A stretch of 64,000 bases of DNA, from the NCBI RefSeq assembly GCF_030013595.1, contig NZ_CP122768.1; one strand, written 5' to 3'. Below are positions 48,116 to 49,628 of the stretch, piece by piece. The notes beneath the pieces are model-generated. The model saw nothing but the letters and a program-made list of their open reading frames with translations, did not search any database and was not told where the DNA came from. The DNA comes from Escherichia coli. Lineage in GTDB: Bacteria > Pseudomonadota > Gammaproteobacteria > Enterobacterales > Enterobacteriaceae. Made by a program: the position numbers and the translations under genes. Each line of letters starts with the position of its first letter. Position 1 is the first letter of the stretch.

Positions 48116-49628
48116 TACCATTTAACTGAAAGCCACCATAACGTCTTTTTGACTACATTTATGATAATGCGTCTCATTTTGTTTTCGTTTTTTTGTTCAG
48201 GGAAATTTTCCGAACATCAGTGATAATGAGGGTTTTGTTGTTTTTGTTTCTGCAATGTTTGAGGACTGTTCCTGGAGACGATTCGTTGCTTGTGAGCAAG
48301 AGGTGGTCCGCTTTACTGGACAAGTTTTGCATTTGTTGAGTGGTGAAATGGAAGTAAAAAGAGCCCCTTTCTGGCAATGGTTGAAAAAGTCAGTAGCGTG
48401 TGACAGTAAAAGCTAACATAAAGTGATTATCGTATGATTATGACAATGACTTATAACTTTTATGAAAAGAACAACAGAAACTACGAAGCCATAGCAGATT
48501 CCTGAGACCATGTTTTCTGAGGTAGAGAAAATAATTCCAGAGTAAATCTGTTCTGTTTTTAGGACAGAAAACTCCATGCTGGCTGTAAAAGTGAAAAATT
48601 AACACCCAGTATGTATGGAAGTCTGAAGATGTTGAGAATGTCGGTATGATACTATATACACATATTTTACTAAGTATTTTTACTAAGCATTTCAGTAAGT
48701 GTTATACACGTATTTTCATAAACACTTGTAGAAGTGTTTTCGTTAAGCATTGCTATACACATCCAGTTTAGTAAATCTTTACGTTAACTAAATCAGTTTA
48801 ATGCTGCTGTAAAACCTTTCTGCTTCAGCAATCAATCTGCTATTCGATTTTACTGATGTTACGTTTAACCTTTCCTGAGATTTCGAGTTTTGAAGTTAGC
48901 ATGAGAAAAGTATCTTTACGCTAAATCAACCCGAACTTTCCTGAAGTAATCTGACGTTCTTTTCGATGTGCTTACGACGATTCTGTTAAACGACTTTCTG
49001 GATGTTTTGATAACAATCAGATTTAGGCATTAACGATTCCTGACGTTTTTCTTTTCCGTGTAAGGTCATTGTTTTCGTCATGAGGTTTCTTCTTGCATTG
49101 CGAAAGTGTGATGAACGGTTTTGGTGTTTTGATTCAGATGAAGTTTACGTTATCGATGGTTAATCGTTTTTATGGTGCGTAGTGAAACGTAACATTTTCG
49201 GGATGAGAAAATCGATTCTGATGGTGATGGGGATGATCGTGTTACGGCGTTATCTGTAAACAGGTTTTAAACGTGTCATTCGCATTCGTGATTTAGTTGT
49301 GTGATTAAGCTGTAGGTTTTGGCGTTGTTGTTGATTTGCATTGCCAGGAAGCGTTCTGGTTGCGTTTCTGGTGTTTTGTTCGAATGTTCTGTGGATCCTT
49401 TTCCCTTCAGGCTTTTCTCGTCGTCCATGTCGTTTTTAAATCCATTCATGCTGTTGTTGCGTGTTTTGCTGCTGTGTGCAGGATTATCTTTTCGTTCCGG
49501 GATGGTTTGTTCCGTTTCAATCACTCTTAATCAGAGAGTTGTAGCATTGCTCAATGCCGGATGCCGTAAAGTTTTACCGCGTTGATGAATGATGTGAAGT
49601 CAAGCCAAATCAACGGAGATCTCTCATC

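Follow-up and report, generated by a model that had tools for sequence, protein, structure and literature searches.

A conserved candidate leader element upstream of yagK/yfjJ-type HUH nuclease genes on a CP4/P4-type island of Escherichia coli

The window considered here, a stretch of 64,000 nt from Escherichia coli (RefSeq assembly GCF_030013595.1, contig NZ_CP122768.1), comprises the nepI-setC region and a CP4/P4-type island, and it showed 100% identity to E. coli FORC_031 across both stretches compared. A short motif occurs twice on the island, and the present article deals with its structure, its distribution and its probable role in controlling a gene of the yagK/yfjJ family. Copy 1 lies immediately upstream of that gene, which encodes a protein of 243 amino acids (aa) with matches to PF11726 (YagK_YfjJ_C, 1.5e-33) and PF23343 (REP_ORF2-G2P), and which is frameshifted in the window by the loss of one A (A6 at 49842–49847 versus A7 in FORC_031). 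The predicted structure of the intact protein has an HUH endonuclease fold and both the HUH and YxxK motifs are present so that, judged by fold and motifs, YagK/YfjJ-type proteins are HUH (rolling-circle Rep-like) nucleases. Copy 2 lies 50 nt past the stop codon of a 188-aa Gp2-like gene and 155 nt upstream of a 191-aa gene. The Pfam matches of the 188-aa gene fall under the cut-off, and hhalign relates it to the YagK/YfjJ family at 80%; the 191-aa gene has no Pfam match but aligns with the family profile at 81% probability, the alignment including a degenerate HUH motif. An earlier note on this DNA, made from the sequence alone, had placed both copies next to YagK/YfjJ-family genes, which holds for the gene following copy 1, whereas the 191-aa gene following copy 2 is only a remote relative.

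Within the window, the 25-mer TTACCGCSTTGATKAATGATGTGAA matches exactly two sites, 49574–49598 and 56594–56618, both on the plus strand, and shuffled versions of the window yielded 0.00 matches even with three mismatches tolerated. TCAACGGAGATC follows in both copies, at 49610–49621 and 56625–56636. Pairwise alignment gave 23/25 matches, an indel of 5 nt and then 17/20 matches, such that the copies (49574–49621 and 56594–56636) are about 89% identical while their flanks are unalignable and the likeness is restricted to about 55 nt. The region is not AT-rich and, therefore, the similarity is no effect of composition; a likeness no better than expected for AT-rich sequence was what the earlier note had named as grounds for rejecting its proposal. 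These results confirm that the repeated motif of about 55 bases is real, as the note had claimed for a motif of about 50 nt at two loci. Some of its details required correction. GTCAAC occurs exactly in copy 2 alone, copy 1 reading ATCAACGGAGATC, and copy 1 does not end at the start codon but 7 nt before the ATG at 49629; this codon was thought to fall inside the element and, although outside the motif, it does lie within a predicted hairpin.

The note also described the copies as parts of duplicated modules, and this view was revised. In sufficiently long metagenomic E. coli-type loci and in strain PK8261, the usual order is copy 1, the 243-aa gene, copy 2 (about 170 nt past the stop codon), the 191-aa gene and an AlpA-like gene. 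The two copies, about 940 nt apart, thus normally flank a single gene as direct repeats and precede very different paralogues that are not recent duplicates. Here, the 243-aa gene and copy 2 are about 5.6 kb apart, and between them lie an Mrr-like endonuclease gene, the 188-aa gene, an hns paralogue and remnants of insertion sequences (IS) containing astA.

Each copy contains two short conserved boxes, which are listed with the other features in Table 1. Box 1 of copy 1 constitutes the right half of a small palindrome, GTAAAG/TTTTAC (49566–49577), and that of copy 2 lies inside another, CGGTAA-AACC-TTACCG (56584–56599), which as RNA (CGGUAA-AACC-UUACCG) forms a small hairpin around the box. 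Variants of the spacer between the boxes include CGCGGTGATTAAT, TGCGTTGATTAAT and CACAGTGATTAAT, among others.

Table 1. Features of the two motif copies and the genes that follow them, in coordinates of the window.
Feature	Position	Strand	Sequence or description	Basis
Copy 1	49563–49628	+	Conserved upstream block of the 243-aa yagK/yfjJ-type gene, GCCGTAAAG to CTCATC	Pattern matches, conservation
Box 1, copy 1	49572–49577	+	TTTTAC	Family-wide T-run plus TT(T/A)AC exactly 13 nt before box 2
Inter-box spacer, copy 1	49578–49590	+	13 nt, most variable part, contributes to 5' arm of hairpin	Variants
Predicted RNA hairpin	49581–49638	+	GUUGAUGAAUGAUG (49581–49594) paired with CAUCAUGAAUCAAC (49625–49638)	RNA folding
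Box 2, copy 1	49591–49598	+	GATGTGAA, contains GTG at 49594–49596	GAT(A/G)TGAA family pattern
Candidate leader mini-open reading frame (mini-ORF)	49594–49632	+	GTG plus 11 codons; TGA (49630–49632) overlaps main ATG as ATGA	Sequence
Shine-Dalgarno (SD) sequence of 243-aa gene	49615–49618	+	GGAG	SD position in motif-bearing lineages
yagK/yfjJ-type HUH nuclease gene	49629–50359	+	Frameshifted here, intact (243 aa) in FORC_031	
Copy 2	56566–56643	+	Conserved block CTCCTGGAAACACTCCGTCGG ... GGAGATCATTCAC, variable on both sides	Profile of 20 unique sequences, alignments
Box 1, copy 2	56592–56597	+	CCTTAC	Position weight matrix (PWM) scan, alignments
Box 2, copy 2	56611–56618	+	GATGTGAA	Pattern match, PWM scan
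SD-like sequence, copy 2	56628–56633	+	ACGGAG, no start codon after it	Alignments
191-aa gene	56791–57366	+	Remote YagK/YfjJ relative downstream of copy 2	hhalign 81%
AlpA-like gene	57435–57668		Helix-turn-helix protein, after 191-aa gene	Pfam PF05930

Homologous loci, designated here by L numbers, were gathered by protein-query searches and their upstream regions were then compared. They share a layout in which a T-run ending in TT(T/A)AC (box 1) is followed after exactly 13 nt by GAT(A/G)TGAA or a near variant (box 2) and then, after 11–16 nt, by GGAG and, 7–9 nt further on, by the ATG. This layout was found in E. coli, Kosakonia, Tatumella, Rosenbergiella, Siccibacter, Entomohabitans, Brenneria, Klebsiella plasmids, Proteus/Providencia, Rheinheimera and Oceanisphaera, in front of proteins that are only 34–67% identical. 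Box 2 variants in the motif-bearing lineages are GTTATGAA, AGTATGAA, CGTATGAA and GATATGGA, with GATGTTGAA in Rheinheimera (L034), and the SD sequence is GGAG, AGAGG or AAGG at 7–10 nt before the ATG. Both K-12 family members, yfjJ and yagK, lack the arrangement of box 1, 13 nt and box 2 upstream.

The search for the motif in other islands, which the earlier note had proposed, was productive well beyond the window. Sequences like copy 1 are present in 1894 of 5426 complete E. coli genomes and sequences like copy 2 in 1877 of them, in addition to the copy 1-like elements of other genera. YagK/YfjJ ("inovirus Gp2-type") genes occur in about one third of complete E. coli genomes, often in multiple copies, and are also plasmid-borne. 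A scan of viral_contigs with the protein query yielded only four loci, and a metagenome scan none but near relatives of the E. coli type. In a comparison of 58 unique copy-1 sequences with 20 unique copy-2 sequences, the latter all from closely related E. coli, the boxes and about 30 nt past box 2 are nearly invariant, and variation is concentrated in the 7–8 nt directly after box 1 (49578–49585 in copy 1) and, for the copy-2 lineage, also in the outer flanks. The copy-2 sequences carry CTG, CTT or TTA at the would-be start position and, given that they are conserved without a start codon, the reason for their conservation must be other than translation initiation at that site.

Folding of the copy 1 leader yielded a hairpin with a minimum free energy of -19.3 kcal/mol (z -2.84) that encloses the SD sequence and pairs the AUG. 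As a measure of how far the translation start is occluded, the free-energy cost of unpairing positions -14 to +3 was calculated for an RNA extending from -62 to +24 and compared with that for RNAs in which only the upstream part had been shuffled. Opening the SD-to-AUG region of copy 1 is predicted to cost 12.3 kcal/mol versus 5.7 in the shuffles, and occlusion exceeds that of the shuffles in all 18 leaders examined, which represent 11 independent lineages (z +1.5 to +5.9). For a control set of 31 neighbouring genes the mean z was 0.005 and four exceeded 1.4, one of them being the copy-1 gene itself; the 188-aa and 191-aa genes of the window show no occlusion. Among family members without the boxes, 11 of 27 are also occluded.

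The position of the 5' end of the transcript is critical for these predictions. In RNAs starting at box 1 or earlier, the SD sequence and/or the AUG is predicted to pair with the sequence extending from box 1 to box 2, and, in a comparison with dinucleotide shuffles, opening costs 7–15 kcal/mol with the 5' end at box 1; RNAs starting past box 2 are predicted to be open, at a cost of 1–5 kcal/mol. Since occlusion is seen only when the 5' end is at box 1, the occluding arm must lie between box 1 and the end of box 2. In most E. coli sequences the 5' arm GAUUAAUGAUG pairs with the 3' arm CAUCAUGAAUC, and in Proteus UUCUAGAUAUGA pairs with UCAUGUCUAGAA, both stems hiding the AUG. For the Kosakonia type, CUCCGGUG pairs with CACCGGAG and hides the SD sequence, and in L148 CCGUAUG and CAUACGG form a stem that hides part of it. 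The anti-SD/SD stem of the Kosakonia type is supported by covariation, albeit for eight sequences only, two of which were registered by hand: 80.6% of cells are paired as against 32–42% in slid controls, four pairs have changed on both sides, and the covariation score of 0.282 compares with 0.170 and is reached by 2 of 500 shuffles. The mismatches are of the U.G wobble type, an indication that folding takes place in the sense strand. Scans of 44000–60000 with the Rfam 15 covariance models produced nothing relevant at E<=1, and seven related loci produced no match at the gathering threshold.

Other foldings were observed outside this set. In the copy-2 lineage a conserved CUCCGU (56578–56583) is predicted to pair with the SD-like ACGGAG, and RNAalifold analysis of 12 copy-2 sequences revealed single changes of the wobble type only and no double changes. 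The upstream 60 nt of more distant homologues (L039, L054, L042, L046 and L148) carry a tight hairpin, with UAUG at the end of its 5' arm and a 3' arm that enters the SD sequence, which hints at a family-wide, ancestral design of hairpin plus mini-ORF extending beyond the two-box motif.

A second property of the leaders concerns box 2 itself, which contains an ATG or GTG in 22 of the 23 leaders scanned (L034, with GATGTTGAA, was not scored), in most lineages 30 nt before the main ATG. The reading frame opened by this codon reaches the main start in 11 of 15 lineages; in five it is in frame and open, and in six it ends on, or no more than 5 nt from, the main start. Examples of the latter include the ATGA overlap in copy 1, L039 and L054, the TGAATG of L005, and the stop codons 2 nt before the ATG in L014 and L148. 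In copy 1, the candidate mini-ORF runs through the predicted stem and its stop codon overlaps the main start, as would be anticipated for translational coupling. The possibility that box 2 provides the true N-terminal start was rejected because, in the E. coli type, it lies in frame 2 with a stop codon and is hence not coding.

Taken together, the data lead us to favour, with a probability of roughly 55%, the explanation that the motif is a conserved cis-regulatory leader of a subclade of yagK/yfjJ-type genes coding for HUH nucleases on P4-integrase/CP4-type islands. Most likely, the leader RNA folds so as to hide the ribosome-binding site and the start codon, and thereby keeps the nuclease scarce; occlusion of the translation start in the sense RNA, as predicted from folding energies, is the best-supported part of this explanation. 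The occluded start would hold translation of a potentially harmful nickase at a very low level. Release could occur when a ribosome initiates at the ATG or GTG of box 2 and reads the mini-ORF through the 3' arm to the main start, melting the occluding stem on its way, and the positions of the box-2 frames suggest such leader-ORF coupling. Alternatively, transcripts starting within the element would escape occlusion. Copy 2 is a paralogous element in front of the next, highly diverged family member. Having lost the adjacent start codon, it probably owes its continued conservation to a DNA-level, promoter-like role of the boxes, which may together form an outward promoter. With neither an Rfam family nor a literature match found for it, the element is best described as an undescribed example of a familiar class, the expression-limiting leaders of nuclease and rep genes of mobile elements. 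The suggestion in the earlier note of a conserved leader is thus borne out by the upstream block found in many genera. Its suggestion of a structure sequestering the ribosome-binding site stands for copy 1 and the 11 lineages on accessibility, and for one subclade on covariation, but not for copy 2, which has no start codon.

Several observations weigh against this explanation. Folding of both copies, proposed earlier as a check, gave a stable hairpin for copy 1, whereas copy 2 folds no better than its shuffles (z +0.87) and is conserved despite this and despite its missing start codon. The occluding stems are lineage-specific and not homologous between lineages and, in E. coli, variation is greatest in the 5' arm and is not matched by compensating changes on the invariant 3' side. 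Occlusion leaves the conserved sequence and spacing of boxes 1 and 2 unexplained. The coupling step also has its difficulties: the box-2 ORF stops early in four of 15 lineages and comprises two codons in most Proteus/Providencia, the in-frame open fraction (5/15) equals the chance rate, and the mini-ORF lacks a consistent SD sequence of its own. In most sequences of the E. coli type GGTGAT precedes the GTG by 7 nt, and nothing recognisable is present in Proteus, L004 or L148; moreover, the mini-ORF start codon is itself part of a predicted stem in both the E. coli type and Proteus. Finally, the leader model presupposes that the 5' arm is present in the mRNA, and promoter scans were equivocal.

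The conservation of the boxes could also be explained by an outward-directed sigma-70 promoter of the minus strand, in which box 2 would supply the -35 element (TTCAYA) and box 1, at a distance of 16–17 nt, the -10 element (TAnnnn), a reading that we consider possible though doubtful. Transcription from such a promoter would proceed leftward. At copy 1 this direction leads away from the nuclease gene, and at copy 2 the RNA would be antisense to the 3' end of the gene lying upstream. Sense transcription entering the element might suffer interference as well, and the reading is compatible with the leader model. No other reading employs both boxes at a canonical spacing, and this one would account both for the conservation of copy 2 without a start codon and, through recognition by the host RNA polymerase, for conservation in front of proteins only about 35% identical. 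At copy 2 the elements are TTCACA (box 2, 56611–56618, minus strand), 16 nt and TAAGGT (56596–56591), and at copy 1 they are TTCACA (49598–49593) followed after 17 nt by AAAACT or after 16 nt by TAAAAC; the -35 sequence agrees with five of the six consensus positions (TTGACA). In PWM scans of both strands these minus-strand sites score highest around each copy, the copy-2 variants TAAGTT and TAGATT retain TAnnnT, and the inter-box segment varies like a free promoter spacer. A comparable arrangement is present in L034 (TTCAAC-17-TAATAT), and another was read by eye in L039 (TCCATA-17-AATAAT). However, the -10 element is TAAAAA in most lineages other than E. coli and lacks the near-invariant T at -7, as does that of copy 1, and a simple consensus scan made no call at the minus-strand site. 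No conserved product is encoded leftward, since the 82-aa minus-strand ORF beside copy 1 is not conserved in frame, and no terminator is predicted left of copy 1. Furthermore, the RpoD promoter that SELEX assigned to the region upstream of K-12 yagK, TTTAGA-16-TATAAT at a distance of about 150 nt, lies on the sense strand (PMC3946193).

Other promoter arrangements were tried and rejected. A plus-strand sigma-70 promoter formed by the two boxes would have as -10 element either TGAANN at 16 nt or TRTGAA at 14 nt, without A-11 or T-7. One placed upstream of copy 1 (TTGCTC-14/15-TAAAGT) has a spacer that is too short and varies through indels. A plus-strand TTGATA-17-GAGATT giving a leaderless mRNA fits L012 and L013 but neither E. 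coli copy 1, where the spacer is 21 nt, nor Proteus. A divergent small gene left of copy 1 (82 or 57 aa) was discarded, its frame not being conserved among the 40 distinct upstream sequences displayed, of 60.

An HUH nuclease gene adjoins the element, as would be the case at a rolling-circle origin, and replication origins are commonly located just upstream of rep genes. The element might, accordingly, be a rolling-circle double-strand origin or an oriT-like nick site of the adjacent protein, which we judge unlikely. Under this hypothesis box 2 (..TTGATATG..) would resemble the CTTG/ATA nick sites (the slash marking the nick) of pC194 and phiX174, the inverted repeats would present it in a loop, and replication would be initiated and terminated at the direct copies, which in most E. 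coli islands lie on either side of one gene. The nuclease-like fold and motifs of the adjacent gene product fit such a role, as do the Kosakonia-type subclade, where a box 2 resembling the nick sites (ATTGATATGAAC) lies in a loop of 19–20 nt between arms of 7–8 bp, and a 5.5-kb Klebsiella plasmid on which a Gp2-type gene is the sole Rep-like gene. Loop placement is nevertheless confined to that one subclade. The inverted repeats shift position between lineages, box 2 of E. coli and Proteus is part of an arm and not of a loop, the E. coli type (AATGATGTG) bears no resemblance to CTTGATA, and no iterons were seen. U.G pairs are tolerated, which would correspond to T.G mismatches in a DNA hairpin of the sense strand and to A.C in one of the antisense strand, and a role in translation is suggested by the 3' arm, which is the SD sequence and pairs with the AUG. 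E. coli homology also runs well past the motif to the left of copy 1, so that copy 1, gene and copy 2 do not form a bounded mobile unit, and that possibility was rejected. A combined version, to which we likewise assign little probability, would give the element two tasks, as control module and as origin, in a cryptic rolling-circle replicon: nicking by the HUH protein in or close to box 2 would serve to replicate or mobilise an excised CP4-type island, with hairpin, mini-ORF and outward promoter as a copy-control circuit in which an island-encoded ProQ/FinO-like protein may take part. Were this true, widespread "cryptic prophage" islands would gain a previously unrecognised replicative stage.

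The very improbable view that the similarity is a functionless relic of duplication or gene conversion of tandem paralogues, or a hitch-hiking junction of homologous recombination, can draw on copy-2 variants that turn unrelated right after the motif (mosaic junctions, which are also the sole hint for the recombination site suggested in the earlier note, otherwise without direct support) and on the narrow E. coli origin of the copy-2 data, but it is disfavoured by the contrast between copies that are about 89% identical and 243-aa and 191-aa proteins related only at profile level, by the fixed spacing of the boxes across orders of Gammaproteobacteria, and by the pattern of conserved boxes with variable spacer and outer flanks in both copy lineages, which is that of selective constraint. 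Among minor candidates, a third, degenerate copy upstream of the 188-aa gene (55897–55925) was rejected on account of a 14-nt deletion in L145, which shows its spacing to be unconserved. Checks by eye for an intrinsic terminator, sigma-54, CRP and IHF sites, dif/Xer sites and integron attC found none consistent across lineages, and TTAC/TCAA tetranucleotides resembling IS608-type cleavage sites were judged to be due to chance.

The favoured explanation, a leader that limits translation, has parallels in well-studied mobile elements. The mRNA of tnpA of IS200, which encodes an HUH transposase, carries in its 5' untranslated region a stem-loop that sequesters the SD sequence, and its basal translation is very low (PMC4513863). 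Like this system, which includes the antisense RNA art200 and Hfq, the island element combines a short leader with the gene of an HUH-family enzyme on a mobile element and a strong SD sequence predicted to pair with an upstream anti-SD sequence, and its opposite strand may also be transcribed. The two differ in that YagK/YfjJ proteins are Rep-like whereas TnpA is a Y1 transposase, there is no sequence or Rfam relationship, the island element lacks an upstream terminator, and its candidate minus-strand promoter faces away from the translation start rather than across it.

A leader peptide and a stem-loop control S004-repA of SGI1, showing that such coupling is used on a genomic island (PMC7826253). 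There, and in tap-repA of R1 and repY-repZ of IncB plasmids, a short ORF extends up to or into the start of a Rep-type gene, the initiation region of which lies in a stem-loop that translation of the short ORF would open, as proposed for the island leader. The candidate leader ORF of the latter is, however, much shorter (2–12 codons), lacks a consistent SD sequence and, in some lineages, continues in frame into the gene; an antisense regulator was not identified at the island element, and the rep genes of the other systems are not of the HUH type.

The dependence on the 5' end recalls a further system. In the "fold-back inhibition" of IS10 and IS50, read-through transcripts carry a 5' arm that hides the initiation region of the transposase and internal transcripts do not, and the predicted opening costs of the island leader differ in the same sense between upstream and internal 5' ends. 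Unlike in IS10/IS50, no internal sense promoter was identified within the island element, the plus-strand candidate TTTACN-16-TGAANN having a very poor -10. K-12 yagK, a member of the same family, has an occluded initiation region (z 2.8), and its promoter lies at a distance comparable to that between copy 2 and the 191-aa gene (about 150 nt); the K-12 genes differ from the island element in lacking the two boxes, and yfjJ shows no occlusion (z -0.3).

A literature search on YagK/YfjJ found no functional study. In the 243-aa proteins of the E. coli type, a stretch of about 40 residues of low complexity, RRAPFRKPTSSDARPSSDDTPVPGGCSETRKVSDKKSGEAA, is inserted at residues ~150–190 between the HUH and YxxK motifs (gene at 15522–16253 in L001, corresponding to 49629–50359 of the window), and this insert is missing from the 189-aa relatives of other genera. 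Many 214-aa alternative-frame forms occur among the database relatives of the protein, and the A-tract at 49842–49847 may be prone to slippage, or its missing A may be an assembly error. On the Klebsiella plasmid pRHBSTW-00636_6 (L141, 5525 bp, no replicon type assigned), the only Rep-like gene is the Gp2-type gene at 3577–4239, consistent with a role of some family members as replication initiators.

Additional features of the island include an astA (EAST1) ORF within IS debris at ~51769–51834, an H-NS paralogue at ~53419–53769 and a Kiwa (kwaA/kwaB) anti-phage system at ~60490–62085. The region of about 1.4 kb upstream of copy 1 (48116–49560) contains no frame-conserved ORF, yet E. coli islands share its nucleotide sequence, apart from indels; a regulatory function, or that of a long untranslated region, is possible. 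Related E. coli islands (L144, at 6914–7258, L146 and L147) carry a gene for a ProQ/FinO-family RNA chaperone about 1.7 kb downstream of copy 2, suggesting island-encoded regulation at the RNA level. No ProQ/FinO gene is annotated in the matching part of the window, where an IS110 element follows the AlpA-like gene.

By fold and motifs, then, the YagK/YfjJ proteins are HUH nucleases, and their genes are placed behind a deeply conserved control element, with a translation start that is predicted to be systematically hidden. Compact and not represented in Rfam, the element is a candidate riboregulator or leader-ORF switch, and these findings together offer a testable entry point to the role of these genes on CP4/P4-type islands, be it in replication, mobilisation or the control of excision.

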